A stretch of 64,000 nucleotides of DNA from Nemertoderma westbladi. Taxonomy: Eukaryota > Animalia > Xenacoelomorpha. Shown in pieces: positions 1-20,625 of the stretch. The number at the start of each line of letters is the position of its first letter. Positions within the stretch are counted from its first letter, which is position 1. Position numbers and translations under genes: made by a program. A model generated the notes under the pieces. The model worked only from the letters and a program-made list of their open reading frames with translations, was not told the origin of the DNA and did not search any database. The stretch covers positions 1 to 64,000 of the forward strand of contig JAUCBJ010006976.1 of assembly GCA_032718475.1 (NCBI GenBank), written 5' to 3'.

Positions 1-951
1 TTTTATATGTCTTTATTGATAAACTGCCTTTTATAAGATGACAAGATTTAATACAAAAACAAACCAAAAACATTAGCCGAAGCCAGTCCATGCGCGTCCA
101 AATGACCCGTTTATAACACCGGGAGACTGGATTCGTGGGCTTAAATTTATTTGCGGTCAAGCCTACTGTATTATTCGATTGATTACTAATATATAATCTC
201 TGACAAATATTATTCACTTTCGGGAAATATTAGCAGTTCCTTTTAGGACGTGGCGCTCTACCTATGTAAACAGAGTTATGACTGATACTACACACAACGA
301 TATGGCTTAAATTTCAAGCATAGGGCGCATTCTTTAGGAATGCTTTATTATCAGATCCAATCACTTTACAATCACGCACGCTACCGGTAACGCACAACAC
401 TGCTCACTGATATGCCGACAGTTACTGACTTTGATCAGGTATAAAGAGATATGCACTGGACTCAGGTAGTGTCTGTCAAACAACATTAGATTCACTACAA
501 ACACAATAATAAAGTCGCAATTGTTGTACATAACCTTTCTCTCTAACCTGTAGTGTATCAAAGATATTGGGAAAATGTGGGTTGATTATTGATATTCTTC
601 AACTAATAACATCCAATTATACTGATACAAAATTACAAACAGTAAAAGCAGTATGACGGTAGGTTAAGATATAATTAGATTGCATTGAATCGTTAAGTTA
701 TAAATTGGAATCGTGTCGAATTGAATCGGATCGAATCGGATCCAATTATATCTGTAAACGCTTTTACAGCAGGTTTCAGAGTATTTCAGCGTATGGGGGA
801 AAAACTGGATCGCGGGGCGAAGGACCAGTTGCATCCCACAGAAGCTTTTACATAGGGTCCCACCACCAATGAATTTATATCCCTACTTTGTATAATTATT
901 CCTTTTCCAAGTTTTATACCGTCAACTACAACTTTTTATTTTACCTCCAAG

Positions 952-1167
952 GTTTTATACTCAGAACTTCAGAATTTATTGGAATTTCATGGAGACGAAA
1001 TTATCCGGGATTTATTGCCGATAGTAACGAACCTGTTGGAACGTCTGGACTCCGCCTACACGGAAACCGAACGATGTCAGACGGAGTGTGAGACCATAAT
1101 GAGGGAGAGAGATGAGCTCCAAAAACGATGCGACATAGAAAGACACAACAGAAGAATTGTGGATAAA
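952..1167 (+). CDS. Internal coding exon for a divergent RH1 (RILP homology 1 / Jnk-SapK_ap_N) domain; probable alternative 5' exon of the JIP3/4 gene or part of a paralog
   Basis: Pyrimidine-rich acceptor ttttacctccaag| before 952 and donor |gttagt at 1168; 216 nt, phase 0-0. It translates to VLYSELQNLLEFHGDEIIRDLLPIVTNLLERLDSAYTETERCQTECETIMRERDELQKRCDIERHNRRIVDK, which aligns without gaps over 72 aa to the end of the JIP3 exon at 18974-19357. Confidence 0.8.
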
Positions 1168-1378
1168 GTTAGTAAATTGAAAATATTATTGCTGTTATGC
1201 TGTTATTGCTTAATGTTATTGCTTATTATTTACAAAATTTATTATTTATTTACAAAAAATTTCTAATCTCACTCAACACCAACCATACATGTGTCAGTTG
1301 GATTTATCTGGAAGGCAATGGTATTTTTTGTTTGTATGTGTGTTCTGCAATGTTTTAGGTGTAGCTAGTTAGATTAAC

Positions 1379-1432
1379 ATGTGTCCTGTACGGGTTAGTG
1401 TAGCTGATGAGCCAAATCCCGGCGAAACACAT
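1379..1432 (+). ncRNA. Hammerhead ribozyme, type III topology
   Basis: Stem III ATGTG (1379-83) pairs with CACAT (1428-32). GTC triplet with cleavage after 1385. Stem I CTGTAC (1386-91) pairs with GTGTAG (1398-1403). Core CTGATGA (1404-10), stem II GCC/GGC (1411-13, 1421-23), GAAA (1424-27). The loops GGGTTA and AAATCCC are complementary. Confidence 0.85.
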
Positions 1433-1684
1433 ATTCAAAAATGTAACTAAATATTAATTATTATTTTTCCTTAATTATTTTATAATTAAAGACTTTTTTA
1501 GAACAATAATAAAGAATTACGTTAATACCGAAAATTTGTAAATAGTAGCTATTTTTTAAATTAATGAGAGATTAATATATCTATTGAAAAAATATTAATT
1601 AAAGAAATATTAATTGGTAAACCCCCTGACACATATGGTTGGTTTTAAGAGAGATTAGAAAGTTTTGTGAATATATACAGTACA

Positions 1685-1731
1685 GTATATATATATATAT
1701 ATATATATACAGTATATATATATATATATAT
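1685..1731. repeat. (TA)n microsatellite, interrupted
   Basis: Two TA runs separated by CAG. Confidence 0.9.
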
Positions 1732-1770
1732 GTCTGGGATCCATGAAATGAAACTGACGAAAACACTATT

Positions 1771-1835
1771 TCCGTAACTGCAACCAAATCTCTTGTTTAC
1801 AGTCCGTAACTGCAACCAAATCTCTTGTTTACAGT
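1771..1835 (+). repeat. 32-bp direct tandem duplication at the left edge of the Penelope-like element
   Basis: tccgtaactgcaaccaaatctcttgtttacag occurs twice, at 1771 and 1803. Confidence 0.9.
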
Positions 1836-2527
1836 AAACTTATACAATCTTCAGTACCCCGAGGCCAGAACCAGACCCTCGAGCATTTTCACGACCTTCT
1901 AAGCTCCATCGAATCAACCATTAAACCTAACATTGAGAAGAACTTGAATACTGGTCTCCAAGACGCTTTAATTAAACTCCAACAAAATGACGCGATATTT
2001 GCAACGCGGATAAAGGTGGAGCTATCTGCATTCTCACCAACAATCAATACGAACAACTGGTGGATCAACACCTATCCGATACCAACACTTATGAAACTGC
2101 CTCAGCACAAAACGACATAGAGACAAACCGCCGGGTTAAGGACCTTTGCACCAAAAAATCACTTACCAGTCAAGAATATTTTTACCTCACAAACTTCAAA
2201 CCCAAATCAAGCTACATCCATGTCCTTCCCAAAATTCACAAATCCGACACCATAAGTCGCCTTAGAGACACAGTTGAAGATGGTGTTCTAGAAACTACTT
2301 TCCCTAGTGACCTGTCATCGCGACCCATCATCGCCAACATAGATTCCCCAACTTCACGCTTGTCCGAGTTGATGGATGAGATTTTTAAACCTATCGTACG
2401 ATCCACACCAAGCAATTTAAGGGACACCAAAGAATTTATTAATAGCCTTCCAAATAACACCGATGTAGGAACCACTCTATTGACCATGGACGTAAAATCA
2501 CTTTTCACATCCATCCCACGCGAGCAA

Positions 2528-3377
2528 GGATAGTTATAAAACCCGAAAATAACGAAAAAGACGAATTTAACAGCGAAAATATCAAAATTATCAAACAATC
2601 TACAAAATCTCGCTTTCCAATAAGATGAGTATAATTAGAAGTCACACTTTACATTTTTTAATTAATAAAATCCGATAATTTCGCCCCATTTTCGACCTTA
2701 AAAGTAATTTAATACCAAATACTGTCTACTGGTTGGTTGGTGGGTGTTGACCAATAATGGCAGCTTGGATGAATGACTCAGCATCAACAGATCTGTAGCC
2801 TATAGGGGCCTACTGGTGTATTACTGTACAGTACAAGCATATGGTACGGTACAGCCTGAAGCGGCAAAGTTGAAAGAAGCGGTCCGGTACCCTAACCCAA
2901 TACTGCAACGATGTAATTCCCATATGAAATGTTGTTTGCATTACGGCATACGGTACCTTTAGCGCTACCTGGCCTAGGTGTGCACTGTAGGCCTACAGTG
3001 ACTGTCAGGCAAGTGACGCGGCGCGGCGGATGTGAACAGGTGAACGTAACTACAGAATTGCAGTCCAGAAGTCGCTAGAACTGCAGTAGGCCTACACTCT
3101 GACTGTACTGTCCTAATTTGAGCGCCATCTTGTGGTGTTTTGCAATCATTGGATCACCCCTAACAACCAATCAGCAGCGCCAGTATTTGGTATTAAATTA
3201 CTTTTAGGGTCGAAAATGGGGCGAAATTATCGGATTTTCTTAATTAAAAAATGTAAAGTGTGCCTTCTAATAATACCGATCTCACTGAAAAGCGAGATTT
3301 TATTTAAAGTTTTATAATTTCGACATTTTCGTTAATAATTTCGTCTTTTTCGTTTTTTTCGGGTTTTATAACTATCC
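2528..3377. mobile_element. Non-autonomous Mutator-like (MULE) MITE, 850 bp
   Basis: Imperfect terminal inverted repeats of ~230 bp (GGATAGTTATAAAACCCG ... CGGGTTTTATAACTATCC); 9-bp target-site duplication CGCGAGCAA at 2519-2527 and 3378-3386; splits the Penelope RT at SIPREQ|G. Confidence 0.88.
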
Positions 3378-3574
3378 CGCGAGCAAGGCCTTGAAGCCCT
3401 AGAGTTTTGGATCGATGAAAAACCAGATCTTATACCCGATCGCTTTGAAAAGGAATTTATTGTAAATTCAATGAACATAATACTTAAATATAATTTCTTC
3501 CAACACACTAATAAAGCGACCAACATTACTCAATTCTACCACCAAACGACAGGGGGCGCTATGGGTTCTAAATG

Positions 3575-4550
3575 GTAGATGTATATATATGCAAGTTGTC
3601 AGTGACAAACAGGCAGTATGGGGTCTGACTGGCTGAAAATAGATCTAGTAGTGGTAAACGTTATCGGCCTAACGGCCTGCTTCAGACTATAATTAAAGTA
3701 AGCAAATAATATAAAACTAACATTTAAAATTCCCTCCACCAACACCAAGTAGAACATAACCAAACGAAGACGGGGGGGGGGGGGGGGGGGTGGGCAACAA
3801 ATGCTGAATGCTGTAAATACTAATTACAGTAGACACATTAATTGGGTCAGAACAAAATAGTGTTGCACGGTGAAATTCAAATAGTAATTTTACTACTACT
3901 ACTAGGTCGAGCGAACTCGGACAGTGGAAATGAGATCCTTCCAGGCTTCCCGATTCTCCATAGCTGTCGCAATTTCGTTTCTCCCAAGTTCAGTATCCCT
4001 TTCAAGTTGATCTATATATGTTATGGCAGGTCGTCCACGACTACGCTTTCCATGAGTTGGTTGCCAGAGAAGTAGATCTGGTATGACCTCGTCTTTACTT
4101 CGCCAGCAGTGCCCACTGAATCTTAATCTGCGTTCACGGAGGGTGGTTGATAGAGGTGGTATTGTACCATAAAGCTCGGCGTTTGTCATGTTTTGTCTCC
4201 AGCTGATGTTTAGGGCTGCCCTTAGTAGTCTTGTGTAGAAACCATCAATTCGTTGTTCAAGTGATTTAGTCAGTGTCCAGGTCTCACCCCCGTATAAAAA
4301 TATACACTTTCCACTGTGGCTCGAAAGAACTTAGTCTTCAGGTGCCTGGAGAGATCTGATTTCCAGATGGTATCCATTTTTGATAGAGCTACCCAAGCCT
4401 TTGCTTTCCTTAGCCTAGCTCTTTTAGAACGCATAAACTATAAACGACGGAGTAGTATTGCAAGCGGTGAGTGAAATCGAAATACTGTAGAATTAGAATT
4501 GCATCGTAATTTATAACGCGCAAAGTGTGGGGAAGAAAAATATCATAATA
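3575..4550. mobile_element. 976-bp composite insertion in the Penelope RT, containing a LINE 3' fragment
   Basis: 11-bp direct repeat GGTTCTAAATG at 3564-3574 and 4551-4561; the Penelope frame (AMGSK|CIPNY) resumes exactly after it. Confidence 0.8.
3891..4415 (-). mobile_element. 5'-truncated RTE-like LINE, 3' end (family A)
   Basis: Minus-strand translation KAWVALSKMDTIWKS...ETWTLTK..RIDGFYTRLLR...RERRLRFSGHCWR...LLLWQP...RGRP; (TAG)n tail at the stop codon. Confidence 0.85.
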
Positions 4551-4948
4551 GGTTCTAAATGTATACCGAACTACTCTAATCTTTTCATGGCCTATCTAGA
4601 AAATCGCACATTTAATATAATATTATCTAGTTATGGACGCACATGCGCCAATTACTTCTTAGAGGCGTGGAAGCGCTACATTAATGACTGTTTCGCTTTA
4701 TGGCTGAAATCACTGGCGCTAACAATCACTGCGCTATTTCTAATCATGAACAACTTGTTTCCTAGTATAAAGTTCACCATGGAAGAAAGTGACAAATCCA
4801 TAAATTTCCTTGATGTCACAGTCAGCATTGAAAAACATAAGATAAATCTCGATATATACACGAAACCTACAGATTCCATGCGCTACCTCAACTATAATTC
4901 CTGTCATCCCCGACACACTTTAAAGAATATTCCCTACAACCTATCAAA

Positions 4949-5190
4949 AAAAGCAAACAGTCGGCCGAAGCCGGAGGCGACCCGAAGGCTCCTCTTTCGA
5001 TAGCTGCTACCCGAGGGTAGGGGTGGGCGCTACTCCTATCCCAAGATTTGCTCCCAGTTATTTAACTGGTACTCATTTTATCGACCCCAGTGGATGAAAG
5101 GCTGAGTGGACCCTGGCGGGGCTGAACCTACAACCATTAGATTGCAGGCCCGGCGCTCAACCAACTGAGCTACCCCGCCTTCCAACCATT
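4949..5190 (-). mobile_element. tRNA-derived SINE, probably with a Deu/Nin-type central domain
   Basis: Minus strand has an A box (GTAGCTCAGTTGG), a B-box-like GGTTCAGCCC and a central CACTCAGCCTTTCATCC..GGTCGATAAAATGAGTACC (domain identity from memory). 14-bp TSD TACAACCTATCAAA at 4935-4948 and 5191-5204. Confidence 0.85.
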
Positions 5191-5800
5191 TACAACCTAT
5201 CAAAGATAATCGTAATGATAGTGAATAACAATGAAACCCGTGATAAACGACTCAAAGAATTAAGCACAGCGCTTATAAACTGTTCTTATCCGACAGACCT
5301 CGTACAAAGAGCCACTGACGAATCCAAAAAGCTATGAAGAGAAGACCTACTGAGAGACCAACAGAGAAAGGAAAATCCCATAATTCCATTTGTAACAACT
5401 TTTAATCCTAACGTTGTCAACAAATTCCGAGAAACGATAAAACACGCATTCGAGACACTTAAACAGAACAGTCGAACGAAGGGGAAATTGTGCAACAAAC
5501 GACTGGTACTCGCACAAAAACAACCTCCTTCCATAAAAAGAATCCACATAAGATTTGGAAAAGATTCCACAAAACACAATTAAAAGTGGAAAATCCGGGA
5601 ATTAAAAAATGCCACAGTCATAGATGCCAACTATGCAATATAATAATAACTGGGAAAGACATCACTTTCAAAAACGGCAAATCCTTTAAAAGAAAGTCCG
5701 CATTAACCTGTAACAGTACCAACATTATTTACGCGCTTTTCTGCAAAAACTGTAATGAGTTCTATATCGGTGAGACCAACAACTTGAGAAACAGAACCAA

Positions 5801-5880
5801 TACACACCGCCAACAGATAAACACTCCACACCGCCAACTGATAAACCCTCCACACCGCCAACAGATAAACACTCCACATC
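5801..5880 (+). repeat. 27-bp in-frame tandem triplication inside the GIY-YIG region
   Basis: HRQQINTP / HRQLINPP / HRQQINTP in ORF 5490-5996. Confidence 0.8.
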
Positions 5881-6535
5881 TACGTCAATTAATTTGCAGC
5901 AAGCACGTTTTCACCTGTAGCTCAGGTGACTTTAACATAGCCCCACCCACTATTTCAATTAAAAACTCCCAATATTGCGCTCCGACAAGAATATGAAACC
6001 CACTTCATTAAGAGGCTTAAACCAGGGTTAAACTCTTATTCCCCTCCATAAACAGAACACACCAACAGCGACCAATAGAAAACGCGGGGGCGTTAGGGAA
6101 TTCCCGCATTCTAAGCCGCCACCTACAGTATATCAACCAACAATAACTCAAATCCCACCACCTGAAGAGGCCGAAAGGCATTAATAATTATTAATTATTA
6201 ATTAAAAATGCATTAATAAACTGGCTGTTTTTTTTAAATTATAAGTTTACATTAATATACTGAACATTGATTTATTCGAGTTATTTATTTATTTTTTATT
6301 TATTTACATAATATATTTCAATGGACAAACTATGATTTGGAACTCAACCTAACTTTTTCAATTTTATATATATATATATATATACAGTATACTTTATCTT
6401 GCTCGAAGGCCCCACGAACGTTTACCTTTTAGGTGGTGGTTACCATAACAGTAGGCCTACATACAAATCACTTAGGGTTTAGACGGAAGAATTTAGCTGA
6501 AAGTATACCTAACTGTGAACTAATGGCATTCTGAG

Positions 6536-8630
6536 CTACTACTACTACTAGGATCGGCATGCTGCGTTGCAGCTGCATTTTTAAGAATGCTGTGCCGGCT
6601 TGTCAACAAAATTGCACCGCCACAACTCCCTATCACCCATGACATTTGCTAGATCATCCGCATCTTTAAGGCCAGTGTCCTTTAAGATGCGTCTCAAGAA
6701 AGTCATGGGCTGTCCACCATGCTTATTCACTCCATGAGGTTGCCAAAGTACAAGATTATGCACTGGCTGGTCCTCACGGCGAAAGCAATGTCCTGCAAAG
6801 CGGAGGCGATTTTGTTCTAGTGTCAAGCTTGGGGGAACCAATGAGACACCTCCAATGTTATATAGTGTCTGGTTGGAGATGTGTGCATTGTACTTGACAC
6901 AATGAACCCGGCGTAGCATTCTTGTGAATGTGCCATCCAGAGATTTGGTGTCCTCAGCAGTTAGAGCCCAGCATGGACTCCCATAGAGGAGTACTGGAAC
7001 TACTGCTGCTCTAAATAATCGGACCTTAAGTTTCCGATTAATTCTCGGTGACTTCCAAATCCTGGAAAGCCTATTCAAGGCTGCCCATGCCTTTCCCTTA
7101 CGTATTCGAAGGTCCTCACCTGACTTCCGGATCCATGATCCCAGGTAACAGAAGTCGTCCACATGCTCAAGCATACCATCCTTTGAGCTTATGCTCATCC
7201 GATCAGAGACTTGCTGAGGACTTTCAAAGTTAACTGTCAGAATTTTGGTCTTTCTGGAGTTAATAAAAAGACCAACACTAGAAGCAGCATGTTCTAATGA
7301 GCTGAGGAGCCGTTGGGCTCCCTCTAATGATTCTGAGAGTACTCCTAAGTCATCAGCAAAGTCTAGATCAGTTAGGTACTTGGCAGGATTTCCTCGACTT
7401 CTGGAGCCAGTAGGTGGAGTTATCATCACCCCATCATCATTATGATGATCTAAGGACATGCGTAGAACATAGTCAACCACAATAATGAACAAGAATGGTG
7501 CAAGTGTGTCTCCTTGGAGGACGCCCCATAACACTTCAAATGGTTCTGTGTCACCGTCAACAGTAGACACAAATGTTGTCGAACCATCGTATACTGATCT
7601 GATTGCTGCAATAATTTCATCAGGAATCCCATATAATGAAAGTATGCTGAACATACGTGATCGAGAGACTGAATCAAAGGCCTTGAAGAAGTCAACAAAG
7701 ATAACAGCCAGATGCCTGTCTTTCTTTTTTGATAATTCTTCAATTATCCTTCTAAGTGCCAAAATGGGCTCCATGGTCCCACGACCTTTACGGAACCCAT
7801 TCTGATTTCCACGGAGCAGTCTCTCAATGGGATCCCTGATGCGATTTAATAGAATCCTATTGTATAGCTTTGCAGCAATCGAGATCAATGAGATTCCCCG
7901 AAAAGAACCATAGAGTGTTAGGTTGCCCTTCTTGGGAACTGGCACCAACTTATTTGTTTTCATTTCTTGTGGGACTCTTGTTGTACGGTACATGTCTACT
8001 ATGATGGGATAGATGAGCTTTAAACACTCAGGTATTTTAAAGACCTCAGGGGGAACACCATCTACTCCACTGGCACGATTGGTCTTAATGCTCTTTGCAG
8101 CAGCCTTCACTTCTGCAAAGGAGATATCGCCAATGGGAATATCTGGGAGTACAGACTCAGACACCTTTACTTCTATAAAGTTATCAGGCAATACCCTGTC
8201 ATTATTGAGGAGCTTTTCAAAGTGGGCTTTCCAACCATTGAGGCGATCGGCTGGTGATTCAGCCTTAACCTTGGTGGTTGGTTGGCTTTTCCGCCCAGTA
8301 AGCAGATTGATCGATTTCCATGCCTGGGATGATTGCCTGCTGTTGTCAGCATCATTGATGGCATCAACCTGTTGGTTTATTAGCTCCTGTAGATTAGCAG
8401 AGTACTGCCTGTTCAGGGACCTAGATGCAGCCTTAACTGCATTCTTGGCCGCTGTAGTCTGTTTGAGTCGGGACTCTTTCTGCGCCTTATGAAGGTCATT
8501 TCGGCACTTTTGAATTTTGTTGTCAGTCCAGGGGGCCCTTTTCCTGTTTCGAGGGTATACAGGAACTGTTTCTGCAGCTGCTAACTTAACTGCTTCTGTA
8601 AAGGCAGTATAGCCCTCACAGTGATGCTAC
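6536..8630 (-). mobile_element. 5'-truncated RTE-like non-LTR retrotransposon (family B) with an intact RT domain
   Basis: Long RT ORF, 3' UTR of about 30 nt and a (TAG)n tail at 6536-6550; no endonuclease domain visible; 5' boundary approximate. Confidence 0.92.
6581..8191 (-). CDS. Non-LTR reverse transcriptase of the LINE; the frame appears to stay open upstream to about 8620 with no true start codon
   Basis: ASGVDGVP, PKKGNL, FRGISL, QNGFRKGR, FVDFFKAFDSV, GVLQGDTLAPFLF, DFADD, FCYLGS. Confidence 0.85.
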   Translation of the reverse strand: MPDNFIEVKVSESVLPDIPIGDISFAEVKAAAKSIKTNRASGVDGVPPEVFKIPECLKLIYPIIVDMYRTTRVPQEMKTNKLVPVPKKGNLTLYGSFRGISLISIAAKLYNRILLNRIRDPIERLLRGNQNGFRKGRGTMEPILALRRIIEELSKKKDRHLAVIFVDFFKAFDSVSRSRMFSILSLYGIPDEIIAAIRSVYDGSTTFVSTVDGDTEPFEVLWGVLQGDTLAPFLFIIVVDYVLRMSLDHHNDDGVMITPPTGSRSRGNPAKYLTDLDFADDLGVLSESLEGAQRLLSSLEHAASSVGLFINSRKTKILTVNFESPQQVSDRMSISSKDGMLEHVDDFCYLGSWIRKSGEDLRIRKGKAWAALNRLSRIWKSPRINRKLKVRLFRAAVVPVLLYGSPCWALTAEDTKSLDGTFTRMLRRVHCVKYNAHISNQTLYNIGGVSLVPPSLTLEQNRLRFAGHCFRREDQPVHNLVLWQPHGVNKHGGQPMTFLRRILKDTGLKDADDLANVMGDRELWRCNFVDKPAQHS

Positions 8631-9066
8631 CCTCTGTAGACTGAAAACCCACTCTCAGTGCCCGCTTTATATTGCTTATAACTGCATTTCATTTGATCAC
8701 TCAAGTTGTTATTACTTGTGTCCTGCATACTCAGTACGTAAATGTCCCCTTTTCTGACTCTTTGAAACTGAAAGTTTTTTTAGGTTTTTGTTTTTTTTTT
8801 CTGTGTGTACCTACTACGTGATTTAGGTGTCTGACAAAATGGCAAGTGAAAGAAGTTTTGCCAGACCTTGGGTCTAGCATTGTGTTTCCCACAGCCCCGA
8901 GACTGGGACCTAACGAGAGTTCCCCTTAGCAGTGACCAACCGACCCAGACTGTATCACACCTACCGGTAGCCGATCAGTCAGTCAGTCAGATCACAGACT
9001 GCTCCGGGATTATTATATACTGCTTATTGCTGTATTATATCATATCGATACGTCCGCTGGATATTA

Positions 9067-9441
9067 CTCGAGGTGTTTTACCCCATACACCCTACTTCTC
9101 GAGGTGTTTTACCCCATACTTCCTACTTCTCGAGGTGTTTTACCCCATACACCCTACTTCTCGAGGTGTTTTACCCCATACACCCTACTTCTCGAGGTGT
9201 TTTACCCCATACTTCCTACTTCTCGAGGTGTTTTACCCCATACACCCTACTTCTCGAGGTGTTTTACCCCATACACCCTACTTCTCGAGGTGTTTTACCC
9301 CATACACCCTACTTCTCGAGGTGTTTTACCCCATACACCCTACTTCTCGAGGTGTTTTACCCCATACACCCTACTTCTCGAGGTGTTTTACCCCATACAC
9401 CCTACTTCTCGAGGTGTTTTACCCCATACACCCTACTTCTC
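9067..9441. repeat. 31-bp minisatellite, about 12 copies
   Basis: Unit ctcgaggtgttttaccccatacaccctactt with a variant ...catacttcctactt. Confidence 0.95.
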
Positions 9442-10370
9442 ACCCCTCTGGCGCTAGTACTGTATGAATAAAAATACAAAAAAAAAAATTTTTGAAAATA
9501 TTTACAATACTTATTATTTACATCCAAAGAACAAATTCTACGAATTTAATAGGTTTCAATAGTTACTTTGCTATAAACCATCACATATAATAGAGTGTGA
9601 TTTTCTGATGGCACGCCCTCCCCCCCCCCCCCCCATAATTTTTATTTACACGAATATTTTTCACATTGCCTCCATATCGTGGCCATTCTTCACATTAGTC
9701 GTAATTTCATTATAAAACTTGCATTGTAATGATTCAAAATAATGTAACTACTGTTGAGAATCCGCTAAATTATTTGCGTTTAAAGATTGCAAGAAGTATC
9801 GTTCGCTGTGTTCGCTGTTCGCTGGGTTACTAGTATACTCCCTATAGTATGTGTACCCACAAAGGAGTTTATGCTACTATATAGCTAGTTTTTCCTACTT
9901 TTTTTATAAATATGCTATGTGATGTTAGCTATTGGTAGGTAAAATAATTATGTTCTAGTACAAATATTTTTTGTTCTAGAACATTTTCGAAAAATTAACT
10001 ACACTTTTTAATTACGGTATCTATAAACATTAATACAGTAGCTACCAATTTTTATAGTAGCTAGAGAATTTGCAAGTTATCTATTATTTTTTAAAACAAT
10101 TTTTTACATTAAAAAAAATTGAGTTGTTTCTCGTTATTTAAAATATTATATTTGTAACCATATACACCATATACACCATATTTTTACCGTGTTTATATAT
10201 ATTATATGTTCTAGAATATTACAAATTATATTCCAGAATATTTTAATAATATTATAATAAAAGTACTGTAGATGATGTTCTAGAACGATAATAAACATAT
10301 AAGAAGTGGAGAAAACTTAAATAAAAATTCTCGAAATTTTTCTGTACATATACTATAGTAGTACCCAACA

Positions 10371-10401
10371 CACATACATACATACATACATACATACATA
10401 C
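10371..10401. repeat. (CATA)n microsatellite
   Basis: Direct reading. Confidence 0.9.
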
Positions 10402-10783
10402 GTATGGGGCGTGCACAAATGATGTCACGGTCGAAGGGGAGGAGGGGGTTTGCAATTTTGTGACAATTTATGACATTGGGGAAGGGGGGGGGGGGGTAGC
10501 TAAACTTGTGACGTCACTATAGCACTTTTTGTGAACAAATAAATTTCACAACACCAACATCAACAGCCAAAGTGAAATCTATGCAAGTAATTTCGATTCA
10601 AGTAATCGCGAATCGAGGGGATGAAGTGTTAATTATAAGTGGCGATAAAGATGAAGAACACCACATTGACTGGGTAGATAAGGACGAAGTAGATTTAGAC
10701 CCAGGAAGTGAAACAATGGTCGGTCGGATACCTGGTGCACTTCCGGTGATCTATGTCGAAACTCAGATGTCGTCATTCCGATG

Positions 10784-11709
10784 GAGTGAATATGTGGGGT
10801 GTCTTCCTTGTTTAGTCATTGTGTACAGCTGAATTAAGGAAGTATTAACATGAGTGAATATGTGGGTGTCTTCCTTGTTTAGTCATTGTGTACAGCTGAA
10901 TTAATGAAGTATTAACATGAGTGAATATGTGGGTGTCTTCCTTGTTTAGTCATTGTGTACAGCTGAATTAATGAAGTATTAACATGAGTGAATATGTGGG
11001 GTGGCTTCCTTGTTTAGTCTTTGTGTACAGCTGAATTACTACTACTACAGTACTACTAGGATCGGTATGCTGCATTGCAGCTGCATTTTTAAGAATGCTG
11101 TGCCGGCTTATCGACAAAATTGCACCGCCACAACTCCCTATCACCCATGACATTTGCTAGATCATCCGCATCTTCAAGGCCAGTGTCCTTTAAGATGCGT
11201 CTCAAGAAAGTCATGGGCTGTCCACCATGCTTATTCACTCCATGAGGCTGCCAAAGTACAAGATTATGCACTGGCTGGTCCTCACGGCGAAAGCAATGTC
11301 CTGCAAAGCGGAGGCGATTTTGTTCTAGTGTCAAGCTTGGGGGAACCAATGAGACACCTCCAATGTTATATAGTGTCTGGTTGGAGATGTGTGCATTGTA
11401 CTTGACACAATGAACCCGGCGTAGCATTCTTGTGAATGTGCCATCCTCCATCCAGAGATTTGGTGTCCTCAGCAGTTAGAGCCCAGCATGGACTCCCGTA
11501 GAGGAGTACTGGAACTACTGCTGCTCTAAATAATCGGACCTTAATTGTCCGATTAATTCTCGGTGACTTCCAAATCCTGGAAAGCCTATTCAAGGCTGCC
11601 CATGCCTTTCCCTTACGTATTCGAAGGTCCTCACCTGACTTCCAGATCCATGATCCCAGGTAACAGAAGTCATCCACATGCTCAGCTGAATTAATGCAGT
11701 ATTAACATG
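10784..11709. repeat. 67-68 bp tandem repeat, 4 copies, the last split by a LINE
   Basis: Units start at 10784, 10852, 10919 and 10986 (gagtgaatatgtggg...); the fourth unit is completed at 11694-11709. Confidence 0.9.
11039..11682 (-). mobile_element. 5'-truncated copy of RTE-like LINE family B
   Basis: Near-identical to 6536-7168 with a small frameshifting duplication near 11445; 11-bp TSD CAGCTGAATTA at 11028-11038 and 11683-11693. Confidence 0.93.
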
Positions 11710-12310
11710 TAGTATTAATAACATAATTTCAAATTTAACATTTTTTATGAACTATACGGGGTATTTTTGGTGACGTGACGTTCAAGGGGGGAGGGGGGGT
11801 TTCAAAATTCGTCACAGATTGTGACAGAGGGGGGGTCGGGGTCGAAAATCGTCAAAAAAAGCGTGACATCATTAGTGCACGGCCCCTATATAAAATATTC
11901 CAGAATGATGTTTATTTATTCAATAGAATAAATACCCCTAGCGAACGATAATTCTCGGAATCTTCGTAAGCCTATATCTCAGCTATATTCGTTCACGAAT
12001 TTCAGACATTGTTGTACATTTTACATATTTCGCATTTTTATAAAACGCTCAGATAAAAAGAGACACAATCGAAAAATTTGGTTCCATGTGGACATCGAAT
12101 GTGAGTTTTACTGCAGTAATTATTGTGTTTCAAATGTCAAGCAATGGGATTAAGTTTTGTAAAAATATGGGGTGTACGTGTCATCAGAAATTGATACTAT
12201 GTTACGTGTCGTGGTGTAGTTGCTAAAACAAACTGTCCACTGGTACACCGAACACATAATCCCGGTTTTGGTAATAATTCATGTACTATAGTACCTCTAA
12301 CGAGATTCTT

Positions 12311-15307
12311 CTACGAGATTCTTTTGATTTTCATTAAAACTTTTTCAATATATGTGGTATATACGAATTTGTTACTTATATTATTCCACATGTATATAGG
12401 TATTGTTCCTTCGTTCTTAATTCGGTTGAAGTCTACCATGATGCCTTGTTTCTTTCCGATTTTCCACCAAGTACCACAATCAGTAACGCAACTATCATCG
12501 CAATTTCGTTTATCAGGGAATACGCTGTTGTTGTAAGATGACATGAAATCGCTCCAATTCCCAGCGTTGTCTAAATTCCCGGTTACTTTGTAACCGTCGA
12601 CAATCAGGCGGTAATCCGTGCTGTTTCCAACAATGAATCTCGAATATTCAGTGGAGTAACTAACTTTTTCCCCAAAAATTATATCAATTCGAAGTGACAC
12701 AACTCCATCTTTGGTCAGATTCGATAATTTATCTAATCCCACCCAATACCCGCTATCTCCACGGAAACCGTCAACGTATTTGTTATCTTGGCAACTTTGT
12801 TTAAATGTCTCATCACCCTTTTCACTATCCCTTTCCATTATGACTAACCACGGTCCTTCGCATTTGACCTTTTCATTGAATCCAAATCGGGTAGCGGAAA
12901 TAGTTTCATTATTTGACACATCTGTGCATGGAAAATCGAACGATAAAATCTGTATTATGAAATGTATCATCAAAGTAAACGTTAACACATTGCACGACAC
13001 TGAGGTAATTAGCACAAGAACCAACCAAAACCGTCTTGTAGGCCTACTTAGTAATTGTACACTAATTCTCTTTAGCAATGCAAAGATATTTTCTTTATTT
13101 GTGAAGCCAACATCACTGCCACTGTCCTTCCTATCTTCAACACTATCTCTCCCAATGTCTTCCTTCTGATCCCCAATATCATCACCATAAACCACATCAC
13201 CATTTTGTCCCACTATATCATTAACCACATTTTGATTTTGACCCACGATATCATTAACAACTCTTCCACTTTGACCCACGATATCATTAACAACTCTTCC
13301 ACTTTGACCCACCATATCATTAACAACTCCTCCACTTTGACCCTGCTTATTAACCACATTTCGATATTGACCCACCATATCATTAGCAACTTTTCCATTT
13401 TGACCCACCATATCATTAACAACTCTTCCACTTTGACCCACCATATTAACCGCATTTTGATTTTGACCCACCATATCATTAACAACTCTTCCACTTTGAC
13501 CCACCATATTAACCACATTTCGATTTTGACCCACCATATCATTAACAACTCTTCCACTTTGACCCACCATATTAACCACATTTCGATTTTGACCCACCAT
13601 ATCATTAGGAACTCTTCCACTTTGACCCACCATATCATAGTCAACTCTTCCACTTTGACCCACCATATCATTAGCAACTCTTCCATTTTGAGCCTGCTTA
13701 TTAACCACATTTCGATTTTGACCCACCATATCATTAGCAACTCTTCCACTTTGACCCACCATATTAACCACATTTTGATTTTGACCCACCATATCATTAA
13801 CAACTCTTCCACTTTGACCCACCATATTAACCACATTTCGATTTTGACCCACCATATCATTAGGAACTCTTCCACTTTGACCCACCATATCATAGTCAAC
13901 TCTTCCACTTTGACCCACCATATCATTAGCAACTCTTCCATTTTGAGCCTGCTTATTAACCACATTTCGATTTTGACCCACCATATCATTAGCAACTCTT
14001 CCACTTTGACCCACCATATTAACCACATTTTGATTTTGACCCACCATATCATTAACAACTCTTCCACTTTGACCCACCATATCATTAACAACTCTTCCAC
14101 TTTTACCCACCGTATTAACCACATTTCGATTTTGACCCACCATATCATTAGGAACTCTTCCACTTTGACCCACCATATCATTAGCAACTCTTCCACTTTG
14201 ACCCACCATATCATTAGCAACTCTTCCACTTTGACCCTGCTTATTAACCAAATTTCTATTTTGACCCACCATATCATTAGCAATTCTTCCATTTTGAGCC
14301 TGCATATTAACCAAATTTCGATTTTGACCCACCATATCATTAACTACTCTTCCACCTTGACCCACCATATCATTAGCAATTCTTCCATTTTGACCCTGCA
14401 TATTAACCACATTTCGATTTTGACCCACCATATCATTAGCAATTCTTCCATTTTGACCCACCATATTAACCACATTTCGATTTTGACCCACCATATTATT
14501 AGCAACTCTTCCACTTTGACCCACCATATTAACCACATTTCGATTTTGACCCACCATATCATTAGCAACTCTTCCACTTTGACCCACCATATCATTAGCA
14601 ACTCTTCCACTTTGACCCACCATATCATTAGCAACTCTTCCACTTTGACCCACCATATCATTAGCAACTCTTCCACTTTGACCCACCATATTAACCACAT
14701 TTCGATTTTGACCCACCATATCATTAGCAACTCTTCCACTTTGACCCACCATATCATTAACAACTCTTCGACTTTGTCCCTGCATATTAACCTCATTTAA
14801 ATTTTCGCCTCCAATATTATTTACGACATAGTCTTCACCATCAATGTTTTGAACCACATATTCTTGGCCATCTACATTATAAACCTTATATTCTTGACCT
14901 TCAATATTATAAACCTTATATTCTTGACCCTGGATATGATTATCCACATTTCCATGTTGGTACTCAATATGATTAACCACGTTTCCATTTACACCATTAA
15001 TATTATTATTAACCTCATTTAAATTGTCGCCTCCAATATTATTTACGACATAATCTTGACCATCAATGTTTTGAACCACATATTCTTGGCCATCTACATT
15101 ATAAACCTTATATTCTTGACCATCAAAATTATAGACCTTATATTCTTGACCCACATATTGATTTTGACCCGCAATATCTTCGACTCCCTCTTCCCATCTA
15201 CCCCCAGCCTCACCCAATTGACCATTAACATTGTTATACACATTTTCCGAGGGATCGATATAGCTACTTATATACTGCCGAGGTAGTCTTCTTCCCGAAT
15301 CTCCCAT
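12311..15307 (-). CDS. Intronless type II membrane protein (~998 aa): repetitive N/Q/G/V-rich N-terminus, one transmembrane helix, C-terminal fibrinogen-related domain (FReD)
   Basis: Uninterrupted ORF from ATG 15307. Basic stretch RPTRR precedes a hydrophobic segment FWLVLVLITSVSCNVLTFTLMIHFIIQILSF. FReD motifs: C..GPWLVIMER, F..YVDGF..YWVGLDKLSNLT, LRIDI, EYSRFIV..DYRLIVDGY, C..GTWW, terminal LMKIK. Confidence 0.85.
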   Translation of the reverse strand: MGDSGRRLPRQYISSYIDPSENVYNNVNGQLGEAGGRWEEGVEDIAGQNQYVGQEYKVYNFDGQEYKVYNVDGQEYVVQNIDGQDYVVNNIGGDNLNEVNNNINGVNGNVVNHIEYQHGNVDNHIQGQEYKVYNIEGQEYKVYNVDGQEYVVQNIDGEDYVVNNIGGENLNEVNMQGQSRRVVNDMVGQSGRVANDMVGQNRNVVNMVGQSGRVANDMVGQSGRVANDMVGQSGRVANDMVGQSGRVANDMVGQNRNVVNMVGQSGRVANNMVGQNRNVVNMVGQNGRIANDMVGQNRNVVNMQGQNGRIANDMVGQGGRVVNDMVGQNRNLVNMQAQNGRIANDMVGQNRNLVNKQGQSGRVANDMVGQSGRVANDMVGQSGRVPNDMVGQNRNVVNTVGKSGRVVNDMVGQSGRVVNDMVGQNQNVVNMVGQSGRVANDMVGQNRNVVNKQAQNGRVANDMVGQSGRVDYDMVGQSGRVPNDMVGQNRNVVNMVGQSGRVVNDMVGQNQNVVNMVGQSGRVANDMVGQNRNVVNKQAQNGRVANDMVGQSGRVDYDMVGQSGRVPNDMVGQNRNVVNMVGQSGRVVNDMVGQNRNVVNMVGQSGRVVNDMVGQNQNAVNMVGQSGRVVNDMVGQNGKVANDMVGQYRNVVNKQGQSGGVVNDMVGQSGRVVNDIVGQSGRVVNDIVGQNQNVVNDIVGQNGDVVYGDDIGDQKEDIGRDSVEDRKDSGSDVGFTNKENIFALLKRISVQLLSRPTRRFWLVLVLITSVSCNVLTFTLMIHFIIQILSFDFPCTDVSNNETISATRFGFNEKVKCEGPWLVIMERDSEKGDETFKQSCQDNKYVDGFRGDSGYWVGLDKLSNLTKDGVVSLRIDIIFGEKVSYSTEYSRFIVGNSTDYRLIVDGYKVTGNLDNAGNWSDFMSSYNNSVFPDKRNCDDSCVTDCGTWWKIGKKQGIMVDFNRIKNEGTIPIYMWNNISNKFVYTTYIEKVLMKIKRIS
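13205..14800 (-). repeat. Coding minisatellite of interleaved 33-bp and 30-bp units, about 50 units
   Basis: Peptide units NDMVGQSGRV(A/V) and NMVGQ../..GQNRNVV; all length variants are multiples of 3. Confidence 0.92.
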
Positions 15308-17149
15308 TGTCACTTTTCTATCAGTTGTGCGAATACCTATAATGTTCCGTTTTTGTTAATAGGTAATTATACAGTAGATTTTTATATTCTAGAAAATAAC
15401 TAACTTCAGAACCCACAGCAACTATAAAACAATAATTTGGGCCTAGTAATGTTATAAATAAAGTATCTGCGTACACATTACAGCACGTGGACACACCCCA
15501 CAACTGATGTAGTTGCCAATGTTATTATTATTATTATATTTATTAATTCACTCGCAGATTGGGTTAAATATTTTGTAAGGTTTTTTTTAAAATACAGTAT
15601 ATAAAATGTGATTCCAAAATCACTATACGGATAAAAAGGAGGCTACAGAACGTCGTACTCCGTAGCCTATATATTTGATGGGATTAGTCCTACAATTGAG
15701 CCAATAATTTATATGATATAAGTTGTTTTTCGCAATACTGTAACTATTTATTTTATAAAATAAAAGTAGCATTTTTGTTCAACTTTATAATCCTCATTTT
15801 GAAGGAATAGTAAAAACATATTTTTTCGAGGCCGCGTATTCGATAATTCTATGTAGGGAATCTACAACCATTGTTAACAATTTGGATGGAGGCTTGTATC
15901 ATTTTCCAAACAAAAGTAATCTAGATAAGCAGTGATGTCCCAGTGAGGCTAATACATAGGATTTACCTCAAGAGCAAAATGGATCCGAATAAACTTTACA
16001 ATTAATAAATTAATAATATATAAATTAATTAATAAATATTACAACAACTGTATCCTTCAGTCAGAGTCCATACGGGTGAACTGTTGAGTCCACTCACGTA
16101 AATACTATTTCAGACTTCGACAGACTACATGCGTACCAGTCTGCAGGGATGGTCTAAACACGTTAGGTTTAATTTTCCCGAGATTCTCTGAAATAGGTCG
16201 CCCACTTCGTTGCTCGCTCCACACTCATTTATGACACCATATATTACACAATCTCCCTTAAGTCGGAGCCCGCCCCCAAATTTATTTTCAAACTTCAATC
16301 AAACTTCTTACTGCTGGCATGGCCGGATTATTCAATATTGAAATATTTTATTTAGATGCAACATAGATAAAAATGGGTGTTTATAAATATTTAACCATCT
16401 TTGTTGGCTTGGAATGTAATCTAGATAACATTAGAACCGCCTTCTGTTGAAGATTCCGAATCTGAAAACCGTTTTAAATTTTACACCAATATATACGTAT
16501 ATATACATTTTGACACGTAAATCTATATATTCTAATGTTTTTTACTCAATTCTAGAATATTAATTACGCGTAATGAAGAAACAGGTAAATAAATGAATAA
16601 TTGGAGTTGAGCTGTTAATGCAACTGTAATTAATTATATTAATTATTAATTAATATTATGGTTTGGTCATAATAAGCAGCAGCATGGTCTAGTGGTGACA
16701 TTCAAAAAAATAATTTAATTGTTTAATTGTTTTAATTTTTTAATTTTATCTTTTAATTTATTTTCTTCAATTGTTAATTGTTTAACTCTGTTAACCAAAA
16801 TTATGGTTAACAGAGATACAAAAATTGCAATTAAAAACTGCACATTTAAAATGGGTGGTGGGGGGTTGGGGGGTTGTAGTTTGATTTGGCCCTGGGCGCT
16901 GCACACACTCGGGTCCGCCTGCACCTGCATACAAGGATTCCAAAAATATAAAAACTTTTGAATTTTGATGGGATGAAATAGCTGAGATATGGACAAGATA
17001 TAGCCGAGGATTCGAATGTTGCATGCATGAAGGCCACTTTGCTTCCCATCCAGGCTATTTGTTCTATTTAATAAACGCAATTAATTTGTTTATCACTAAA
17101 ATTCATCATTCATAACTATTTTTTATTGTCATTGCGATTCTTTATTGCG

Positions 17150-17510
17150 ATTGTTATAAAAGCCTACCTCTGTATTCTGCACCTTTCCCTGAATTGGTAA
17201 GAACATTGTTTATTGCTTTTACATTGCTTTGGTTATAAAAGCCTACCTCTGTAACCTGCTCATCCTTTACCTTAATTGGTAACAACATTGTTTATTGTTT
17301 TGGTTATAGAAAATCTCACATCTGTAACCTGATCATTTACCTGACTTGGTAAAAAATTGTTTTTTTGTTTTGGTTAGAAAAGTCCACCTTTTCCTTTTCC
17401 TCAATTGGTAACAACATTGTTTATTGTTTTGGTTAGAAAAGCCTACCTCTGTCCCTAGCCTGCTCCTGTCCTTCAATTGTTAACAACATTGTTAAGTGTT
17501 TTGGCTAGAA
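17150..17510. repeat. Degenerate tandem repeat of about 60-75 bp, 5-6 copies
   Basis: Recurrent ttggtta(t/g)aaaagcctacctctgt ... aattggtaacaacattgtttattg. Confidence 0.8.
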
Positions 17511-18009
17511 ATTACATTCCATTTCTGCTATTTATCACACTATTACAAGTACTGTAGTACTGGAGTACGGTACACTACCAAACAGACAGATAGGGGGAAA
17601 AACTAACAAATGTAGATTCGAATTGATTTAATTTGTTGGAAAATGAATTAATTTTAGTGATAAGTGATTAATTTTAGTGCATTAAAATTTGTAAAAAATG
17701 TTTTTTTTTAGTGATGGAAATATTAGTGCCTTTAATAAATATAGGATATTATTATGCAACAATTTGTTAGATCCCATACGTAGTTGGGTATCAATGAAAA
17801 GCATCTTTAATCATGCTCTTACGTAATAGGGTTGAAGAATAATTGCAGTGTAACTGGTGAAATAACGCCAGAGACACCTTTATCAAATGGCAATATTTGG
17901 TTGAAATTTATAACGGTTTTATGATTTCAGACTCCGACTTATTAAAATGGTTCTGTATTGAGAGAGATGATGGTCTATGTATTTTTCAATAAATTAATAA
18001 TATTTGATT

Positions 18010-18033
18010 GTTGCCTAGCGACACTGTAAACAA
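18010..18033 (+). promoter_or_regulatory. Candidate RFX X-box with an adjacent forkhead site upstream of JIP3 exon 1
   Basis: GTTGCCTAGCGAC (18010-18022) followed by GTAAACAA (18026-18033), at the shift from AT-rich to more GC-rich sequence. Confidence 0.4.
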
Positions 18034-18662
18034 TATTTTAACCGCATTGAACACTGAACAGTTCGGAAAAGAAGCTTCATGCTTAGCTTAAGATTGATTG
18101 ATATCTGCATACAGGCATATCTGTGAGTCTGTCACCAGTACTGCTATCAGCAATAAGTAGGCCTATCTGCCTATTTTGTGTACCTGTACTACAGTACTAT
18201 ATCATTTAAATAATCCAATCGTTTAGACTGCCTGACCGCAACCGCAATAATCAGATAATACAGTCCGTCGGTCCGTGAGTCAGACAGTGCACCACCACTA
18301 CTGGCAGACTGGGAATTTACTACACAGGCTACAGGGACTTAGCGCCTGAGTGTCAAGCTGCTACGCTACGGCAGTACGGACACGGCTACACTCAGACTCT
18401 ACCAGCATTCATTTATTATTCTGTATTCATTAGGCCCCAGGACAGTAAGATGTTAGGTACTATCTTACCATTATTGCCAATTTATCAGATAATTTGTGGC
18501 TCTCAGGCTCTTGCAGTCTAAGAATTACCGGTACTGGCACTGGGTACTGGGGTAGGCGTAGAGGATTAATTTATGAATTCTGTTGTTTATAATATAAATG
18601 GAAAACATTGGGCATCTTTAGGAACAGCAACAGTAGTACGTGACTGTGCTTTGCCTACTCTT

Positions 18663-18745
18663 TTTGCTTTTGTTGACAAGCCGGCACAGCATTCTCTGAT
18701 TCTTAAAAATGCAGCTGCAATGCAGCATGCCGATCCTAGTAGTAG
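18663..18745 (+). mobile_element. Very short (~80 bp) 3'-end copy of LINE family B
   Basis: Encodes FVDKPAQHS followed by the 3' UTR and (TAG)n tail; TSD TTGCCTACTCTT at 18651-18662 and 18746-18757. Confidence 0.88.
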
Positions 18746-18973
18746 TTGCCTACTCTTCCTACCGGTGTTTCATCTGTTCATATCTGCATGTATTCCGGCT
18801 GTGCGGTGCAGTGAGGTTTGAGGTAGTACAGGTAGTAGTAGAGTATAGTGATAGATTTATTTCTATGCGATATCGATGTACCGCTACCGGTACAATACTG
18901 CTGTCCATTATTACACGACCCACTTCAGCGCTTCCAATCAAACAGCTAACTCGATAACATTCTAAACGCGAGA

Positions 18974-19357
18974 ATGACGAATTTAACGTCATCATTTAGT
19001 ACCGAGGTAGTCTACACGGGGGATGAGGATTCCTTCCCGGCGGTTGTCTACTCGGGTACCGGTAGTCCATCCAGCTCGGCGAACAGCGACGAGGCAGCTA
19101 ACCAATCACTGATGTCGCCGAGAGTGTCTCATCTTGCGAGCTCCATATACAAAGAGTTTGAGAGAATTATCACAGATTACCACGAGGACTCGATAAAGAC
19201 GTTGATGCCTCTTGTGGTCTCATTGTTAGAGACTTTGGATCAATCGGTCACTGATGGGGATGATAGGGAGGTTGAGAACGATCTTCTGAAGGAAGACAAC
19301 GAACAGCTAGTTACTCAGTACGAGAGAGAGAAACAGTTCAGGAAGTTGGCAGAACAG
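18974..19357 (+). CDS. MAPK8IP3: JIP3/JIP4 (sunday driver/UNC-16) first coding exon, RH1 domain
   Basis: MSPRVSHLASSIYKEFERII..LMPLVVSLLETLD..LLKEDNEQLVTQYEREK matches the JIP3/4 N-terminus; donor CAG|GTACCG at 19358, phase 0. Confidence 0.95.
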
Positions 19358-20256
19358 GTACCGGTAATATACACTGCGAGATAGGCCTATGTTGCGGTTT
19401 TTGGGACCAATCAATGTGTGTCTTTATTCTGACTGTCTAGGTTAAGCACTACCGGTCCGGTATCCGTTTTATCAGCTCATTTAGATAATGGAAAATGGAA
19501 AGTTTTTATTTACTTCCATAAGTAAAAACGCACCAACCAACATGCACAACACAATAAAATATGATCATTTTTTAAACATTCACTTAGTGACTGATAGCGG
19601 CCGTATCTAAATAATCAAATATCAGTATACAGTATGCTATACACACGATATAAAAACAAATTGATTACTATTGGTGAGTATGTTAGTATATGTGATCTAC
19701 AGTATAAAATAAGGATGTAGGATATTGTTTTTAAAATACAAAAAATAAATTAAAATAAGTCTGTAGGAGAGTGATCTTAAAAATTTCTTAAAATTTAATA
19801 ATTTAATAATAATTTATTTTTTAAAATCTTAAAATAGAAACAAACAACATATTAAAATACCTAAAATTTAATAAAATAAAATGATTTAAGTTAGTAGTTT
19901 TATTCTTAAAATAAACGATGTTTAATAAAATAAGTATATTATGTAATGTAGGTTTATTGAATCAAAATATTGTAAAATAATGTATTTAAGATAATGAAAT
20001 ATTGAAATGAAAATATAAAAGTTTATGTTCTTTTGGACTATTATTATGGTAGATTACGGAACGCTTTCAAGTATGAGCTCAAATCAAAATCACGTAATAG
20101 AGTTTTAAAGGAAGCTAGTGGTGTTCCTGAACTGCATTGCCGGTAATCCGTTCCAAGGGTTGAAAACTCTAAAGTAAAGGCTATTTCGTATTAAGCATGA
20201 TGCCACATTTATACTTATGTCCACGTGTTCTTATGTGCTGTGTTTTTATTGTCTAG

Positions 20257-20377
20257 AAAATGATTCAGGATGAAGATCTTTTCGAACAGGAACGACGGGA
20301 GATGATGGAGAGAATCGATTCTCTGGAGAGCAACACGAGGAATCTCGATGCTAAACTCAAGAATTACGTGGAACAAG
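20257..20377 (+). CDS. MAPK8IP3: JIP3/JIP4 coding exon 2 (121 nt)
   Basis: Acceptor ttattgtctag|, translation KMIQDEDLFEQERREMMERIDSLESNTRNLDAKLKNYVEQ, donor AAG|GTATGA; matches JIP3 KFIEFED..LELKAKNYADQ. Confidence 0.93.
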
Positions 20378-20554: not shown

Positions 20555-20625
20555 TTTCACGATTTGAAGATCGGGAACACGATATGAAGAAAGATTATCA
20601 GACGTTGAATACAAGGCACACTGAA
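20555..20625 (+). CDS. MAPK8IP3: JIP3/JIP4 coding exon 3 (71 nt)
   Basis: Branch-like ACTAAC at about 20524, acceptor ttgtttttag|, translation (V)SRFEDREHDMKKDYQTLNTRHTE, donor GAA|GTGAGT; matches JIP3 SRLEERE.EMKKEY..L..RHTE. Confidence 0.93.

Follow-up and report, generated by a model that had tools for sequence, protein, structure and literature searches.

The stretch of DNA analysed here (the window) comprises the first 64,000 nucleotides of contig JAUCBJ010006976.1 in the Nemertoderma westbladi assembly GCA_032718475.1. It contains coding exons 1-3 of a JIP3/4 gene (the family of MAPK8IP3/SPAG9, Syd and UNC-16), followed by a 40-bp satellite up to the window end. Approximately 18 kb upstream of the canonical JIP3 exon 1 lies a further exon, exon A, which codes for part of a second, diverged RH1 domain. 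The interval between exon A and exon 1 is occupied by retroelement fragments, short repeats and an antisense fibrinogen-domain gene. A first-pass annotation, made from the letters alone, had proposed that exon A provides an alternative N-terminus for JIP3, and it is this proposal that we examine. The features on which it depends are the following.

912-951, plus strand: candidate 5' extension of exon A, with a second in-frame AG acceptor and a pyrimidine fraction of 0.74.
952-1167, plus strand: exon A, an internal exon of phase 0-0, coding for a diverged RH1 domain, likely of the JIP3 type, and the start of leucine zipper I (LZI).
1168-1266, plus strand: 32 codons that stay open on read-through past exon A, including a hydrophobic stretch (Kyte-Doolittle 2.7), in low-complexity, AT-rich DNA.
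1168-20256, plus strand: putative intron of the alternative isoform, 19,089 nt, proposed from scans of open reading frames (ORFs) and acceptors.
18974-19357, plus strand: canonical JIP3/4 coding exon 1, with its ATG at 18974, a complete RH1 domain and the donor CAG/GTACCG.
20257-20377, plus strand: JIP3/4 exon 2, 121 nt, phase 0-1, in which LZI continues.
20555-20625, plus strand: JIP3/4 exon 3, 71 nt, phase 1-0.

Exon A is bordered by a pyrimidine-rich AG acceptor and an AAA/GTTAGT donor, is in phase 0 at each end, and has an exon-like GC fraction of 0.43 compared to 0.33 and 0.28 in its flanks. Its 72 residues align without a gap to the final 72 codons of JIP3 exon 1 (19142-19357), as the first-pass annotation had observed, with 16/72 residues identical and a BLASTP E-value of 8e-8. 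The Pfam RH1 profile (PF09744), a check which that annotation had suggested, matched exon A at 36 bits against a cut-off of 24, covering profile positions 9-65 of 65. In the PDB, exon A matched human JIP3 (E 6e-6) and aligned to residues 35-106, the human numbering being anchored on the residue numbers in PMC13499124. The exon encodes the second half of helix alpha1, alpha2 and the start of LZI. Since the first half of alpha1 (human 22-34) is missing and the sole in-frame Met, residue 50, does not provide a usable start codon, an upstream exon is needed. The 5' end of exon A is uncertain because of the second in-frame acceptor at 912, 912-951 probably serving as polypyrimidine tract for the 952 acceptor rather than as a coding extension.

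In RH1 domains, two helices, alpha1 and alpha2, form a four-helix bundle on dimerisation. An AlphaFold monomer model of exon A built with an alignment consisted of a helix at residues 2-13, a break at Gly14 and a helix at 15-71, and the model built without an alignment was one helix, in each case for a monomer of an exon that does not include the first half of alpha1. A Foldseek search with the helical model returned no match. Atlas feature matches of exon A (0.91-0.93) were RH1 clusters; when the search was repeated with the JIP C-terminal families skipped, the identical RH1 clusters were recovered, which do not separate JIP from RILP.

A phmmer search with exon A against 1.84 billion protein representatives gave 40 matches at E<=0.001, and on reading their sequences we judged all 40 to be JIP3/4 N-termini and none to be RILP. 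These matches were 25-36% identical to exon A, whereas canonical exon 1 reached 69% identity among its 120 best relatives listed, a maximum which suggests that the lineage is poorly sampled. Exon A retains the JIP-type residues Y37, E39, L63, E64, D67, E79, E81, L90, E97 and R101. Tyr at human position 37 is present in 96/96 JIP segments, in contrast to the Gly (Gly39) found at the equivalent position of RILPL2 (PMC6831827). At human JIP3 P57, exon A has Pro, as do RILP and RILPL1 (PMC6831827), and hence not the myosin-V-type Phe of RILPL2. Exon A has in common with the JIP3/JIP4 RH1-LZI region the Pfam RH1 domain, a gap-free match, and the position and phase of the 3' intron. It differs in an extra intron inside alpha1, absent from exon 1, in the substitutions V60T, Q89E, Q93R, N87R and Y94C, and in being a second copy at the locus. 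The likeness to RILP, RILPL1 and RILPL2 consists of an RH1 domain followed by a coiled coil; apart from the phmmer result and the Tyr37 residue, exon A also differs from this family in that no RH2-like or RILP-like coiled-coil exon was found downstream before JIP3. Canonical exon 1 likewise had no RILPL2 match in the PDB search. The RH1 domain of exon A is thus likely to be of the JIP3 type.

Exon A carries the imprint of purifying selection. Its nucleotide identity to exon 1 was 34, 41 and 21 of 72 at codon positions 1, 2 and 3, respectively. Neutral decay was simulated by mutating exon 1, with substitutions only, to the amino-acid identity of exon A in 3000 runs. The frame remained without a stop in 19/3000 runs, and 5/3000 also kept the GT. 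The BLOSUM62 score of exon A against exon 1 (92) was reached by 0/3000 runs (mean 19, sd 15). Exon A scored 54.9 bits, compared to a neutral maximum of 17, on a profile that included proteins chosen by their likeness to exon A, and 24.6 bits (E 2.8e-7 over 976 ORFs) on a profile of 12 full-length proteins chosen via exon 1. Identity to exon 1 was found at 14/36 family-conserved positions and at 2/36 variable positions, and a further 15 of the 36 conserved residues were similar. Judged by these sequence comparisons, exon A is a coding exon under purifying selection, working now or until very recently.

To what exon A is spliced was approached by scanning the DNA downstream. JIP3/4 profiles were run over the 976 six-frame ORFs of 1-20700, and the only ones to score were exon A and exons 1-3, in agreement with the earlier statement that no other JIP-like exon lies between exon A and the gene. 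Among 80 acceptor-like sites, 26 opened at least 20 codons in phase 0, with exon 2 having the highest charged fraction. When no tract filter was applied, 215 of the 917 plus-strand AGs in 1200-20300 opened a phase-0 frame of at least 28 codons. The 12 best of these frames by coiled-coil composition all lay inside exon 1 or exon 2. Outside these two exons no value exceeded 0.43, whereas exon 2 had 0.57 and 59 homologous segments had a median of 0.54. By these scans, which are blind to short or non-coiled-coil exons, no separate coiled-coil exon with a phase-0 acceptor is encountered downstream of exon A before JIP3 exon 2, and an alternative N-terminus is therefore the best reading. When exon A is joined in silico to exon 2 (20257-20377), its reading frame continues into exon 2 in the register used by exon 1, as had been predicted from its equivalent phase-0 donor. 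An intron of 19 kb is in scale for this gene, as its intron 3 exceeds 43 kb.

We propose that exon A is probably an intact, strongly diverged duplicate of the RH1/LZI-coding JIP3 exon 1 that is spliced to exon 2 as an alternative N-terminus. An upstream promoter and at least one first exon, probably left of the window, would precede exon A. The 19,089-nt intron would then skip canonical exon 1 and nest the antisense gene, and exon 2 onward would supply the shared JIP3 body, with LZII, RH2 and WD40. The product would be a JIP3 isoform in which the motor-binding N-terminus is exchanged and, as predicted from its residues, dynein coupling is weaker. Two parts of the original proposal are thereby retained, namely the duplicated, diverged and selected JIP3-type RH1 exon and the choice of exon 2 as its most plausible in-frame partner. 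The shared 3' boundary, on which that proposal also relied, is a weak argument. A GT is present at the same codon in 66/80 other animal JIP loci; the intron position is ancestral, and any duplicate, including one in a separate gene, would inherit it.

The predicted change in motor binding comes from residues with published roles. The V60Q mutation in JIP3 abolishes binding to DLIC and not to the kinesin heavy chain (PMC9284427). Contacts to the dynein heavy chain are made by Q89 and Q93, and the V60 pocket is the site through which an internal helix autoinhibits JIP3 (PMC7615804), while kinesin-1 binds H45-C46 and the acidic patches E39/E41/E54 and E27/E72/E77 (PMC13499124). In exon A, position 60 is Thr, a residue found there in 0/96 family segments (V in 92/96), although V60T is milder than the experimental V60Q. 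Position 89 is Glu, where the family has Q in 88/96 segments, and position 93 is Arg, where it has Q in 96/96. Of the acids in the kinesin patches, E39 and E72 are kept, E54 is replaced by Asp, and E41 and E77 are replaced by Gln, Q77 being as in JIP4; positions 45-46 are Glu-Phe (E45-F46). This pattern suggests, as a hypothesis only, that dynein coupling is weaker in exon A and that kinesin binding is partly kept. The upstream promoter would supply an RH1-LZI region without the DLIC pocket valine and without both dynein-heavy-chain glutamines, which would keep most of the acidic kinesin-1 surface. A stronger version, tentative and on balance doubtful, is that this is a natural JIP3 isoform which swaps the whole motor-binding module and is dynein-uncoupled, with promoter choice setting cargo direction; it may also be non-autoinhibited, since the autoinhibitory helix uses the same V60 pocket.

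Several observations weigh against the proposed alternative N-terminus. No 5' partner exon stood out among the 24 open GT sites in 1-900, where the best profile score was 6.5 compared to 22.9 for exon 1, and an entire antisense gene lies between exon A and JIP3. A paralogous exon 2 that had diverged as exon A has would be hard to detect by profile: the score falls from 134 to 25 bits for exon A, and the true exon 2 scores only 22. A metagenome scan with a JIP alignment yielded 172 relatives, of which 80 were kept as comparison loci. No diverged second RH1 exon was found beside these 80 loci, of which four extended at least 9 kb upstream and none 18 kb, and two RH1 domains were present in 0/179 stored JIP proteins. 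No close orthologue of exon A was found among the protein representatives searched with phmmer, in word-based protein searches (0/346 longer and 0/2 near-length candidates) or in a metagenome scan with exon A (0/428 candidates). The identity of exon A to JIP3/4 overlaps the 20-35% reported between JIP and RILP RH1 domains (PMC6831827). A phylogeny, which the first-pass annotation had also suggested, was run on 72 columns and 52 rows selected from 96 distinct segments plus both exons, and it left exon A unplaced: on an end branch of 3.5, it grouped uninformatively with other long branches, and its sisterhood with exon 1 was neither supported nor rejected (p-AU 0.505). Finally, 22/36 family-conserved positions are changed in exon A, so that finding all three chosen dynein contacts changed is not significant (p 0.22).

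An ATG at 412 with a donor at 438 (CAG/GTATAA) was considered as a candidate first exon and rejected, as it ranked 148 of 635 on the alpha1 profile. Among the comparison loci, L045 has an inverted, partial and near-identical piece of exon 1 at the edge of its contig (3-110, minus strand), and in L077 JIP exon 2 is present twice in near-identical form (1537-1716 and 1870-2049); each may be an assembly artefact.

Exon A could instead be part of a separate upstream RH1 gene, either a short or fast JIP3 paralogue or an aberrant RILP-family gene, with the rest lying left of the window or being too small or diverged. We consider this unlikely, though it deserves serious weight. It is in keeping with the ancestral 3' boundary, the intervening antisense gene, the intron inside alpha1 that exon 1 does not have, and an identity to JIP3/4 within the range that separates JIP from RILP. 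Presumably the same 3' boundary exists in vertebrate RILPL1, which a literature search did not confirm. Complete JIP paralogues, each with an exon 2 of its own, also occur in other animals (e.g. L060 and L061). At L060, L061, L078, L080 and related metagenome loci, two distinct JIP3/4 types were observed, which are paralogous genes rather than alternative exons because each has its own exons 2 and 3. In contrast, no JIP-like or coiled-coil phase-0 exon was found from 1168 to exon 1 of the N. westbladi locus, RILP was absent from the 40 best matches, and the JIP-type Y37, D67, E79, E81, L90, E97 and R101 are retained.

It is improbable that the coding sequence of a short product ends with exon A, in which case the 32-residue read-through would form the tail of a membrane tail-anchored RH1 adaptor. 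The frame is open to 1263, the best 19-residue hydropathy is 2.7, and values of at least 2.0 were reached from just 61/4596 background start points in AT-rich zones. However, the DNA of the tail is low-complexity, with a 13-bp tandem repeat and GC down to 0.28, a good donor is located exactly at the ancestral position, and 2.0 is also reached by 3 of the 54 distinct tails obtained by reading through ordinary JIP exon 1 (3/24 of those long enough). The segment 1168-1266 is probably intron.

Very improbable, in our view, is that exon A was long functional and is now silent, as a recently dead exon or gene remnant. The searches found neither its partner exon nor an orthologue, and the neighbourhood is rich in retroelement fragments, but the frame, AG and GT are intact despite saturation of third codon positions, so any functional loss must be very recent. 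Hardly any credence can be given to splicing of exon A into exon 1 via a cryptic in-frame acceptor (19007, 19094 or 19232) to give a tandem or extended RH1-LZI, as the in-frame AGs present in the exon-1 ORF, including 19232 with a pyrimidine fraction of 0.68 equal to that of exon 2, lie in coding sequence, mostly with poor tracts, and double-RH1 proteins are absent from the stored JIP set.

The remaining features of the window are listed below.

5463-5993, plus strand: GIY-YIG endonuclease fragment of a broken retroelement.
6584-8626, minus strand: LINE-type element, with a reverse transcriptase ORF open over 681 aa.
12311-15307, minus strand: antisense gene consisting of a single ORF, repeat-rich in the N-terminal part and with a fibrinogen domain at the C-terminus.
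20617-64000, plus strand: 40-bp satellite filling intron 3, the unit of which includes the exon 3 end and donor.

Pieces of the broken retroelement, which we take to be Penelope-like, were found on the plus strand at 1758-2530, 3372-3575 and 4497-5993, the last ending in the GIY-YIG domain. They are broken up by a 238-bp inverted repeat pair (2528-2762 and 3141-3377, 86%), and a further LINE fragment (3905-4330, minus strand) lies within them. The 3' part of the reverse transcriptase ORF (6536-7169) is repeated at 11042-11684 with 97% identity. The antisense gene, of 998 codons, includes a hydrophobic stretch and a long repeat region rich in Asn, Val, Gly and Gln, and its fibrinogen domain is matched by Pfam at 49.5 bits. 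It is arranged head-to-head with canonical JIP3, the start of which is 3.7 kb away. The N-terminus of canonical JIP3 (18974-19120) carries a pair of VVY motifs along with a Ser-rich spacer and is longer than that of most relatives. The satellite of intron 3 extends over more than 43 kb and holds 1023 copies of GAA/GTGAGT beyond the real exon 3. These decoy donors may be harmless, as the commonest version of the unit is without a pyrimidine-tract acceptor.

The proposed arrangement belongs to a known class. In human, 39 N-terminal duplicated-exon substitutions arise from alternative promoters, with examples in the protocadherin and UGT clusters, PLEC and KCNAB1 (PMC8373072). As in that class, two homologous 5' coding exons, exon A and exon 1, lie in one locus, and the upstream copy is frame-compatible with the shared downstream exon. 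The N. westbladi case differs in that the splicing is predicted, exon A is internal and needs its own first exon, and the two copies are separated by an unrelated antisense gene. In titles and the beginnings of abstracts, no alternative RH1 exon was found reported for JIP3/4, Syd or UNC-16. The available supplementary text of PMC8373072 did not contain MAPK8IP3, SPAG9 or RILP, a weak blank as UGT1A was absent from it too. Duplicated N-terminal exons with alternative promoters would thus be apparently new for JIP3/4, the key junction being a prediction.

Through its RH1-LZI end, JIP3 links vesicles, lysosomes among them, to dynein as well as to kinesin-1; the choice of direction by a single adaptor is still an open question. 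The 72-residue module of exon A suits standard binding assays under any gene model. If the splice is true, a naturally selected RH1 domain would be changed at V60, the residue that laboratories mutate to uncouple dynein. Vertebrates have two genes, JIP3 and JIP4, the products of which differ approximately 38-fold in affinity for KIF5B (PMC13499124). If the predicted splice occurs, one gene with two N-termini would do here what vertebrates do with JIP3 and JIP4.

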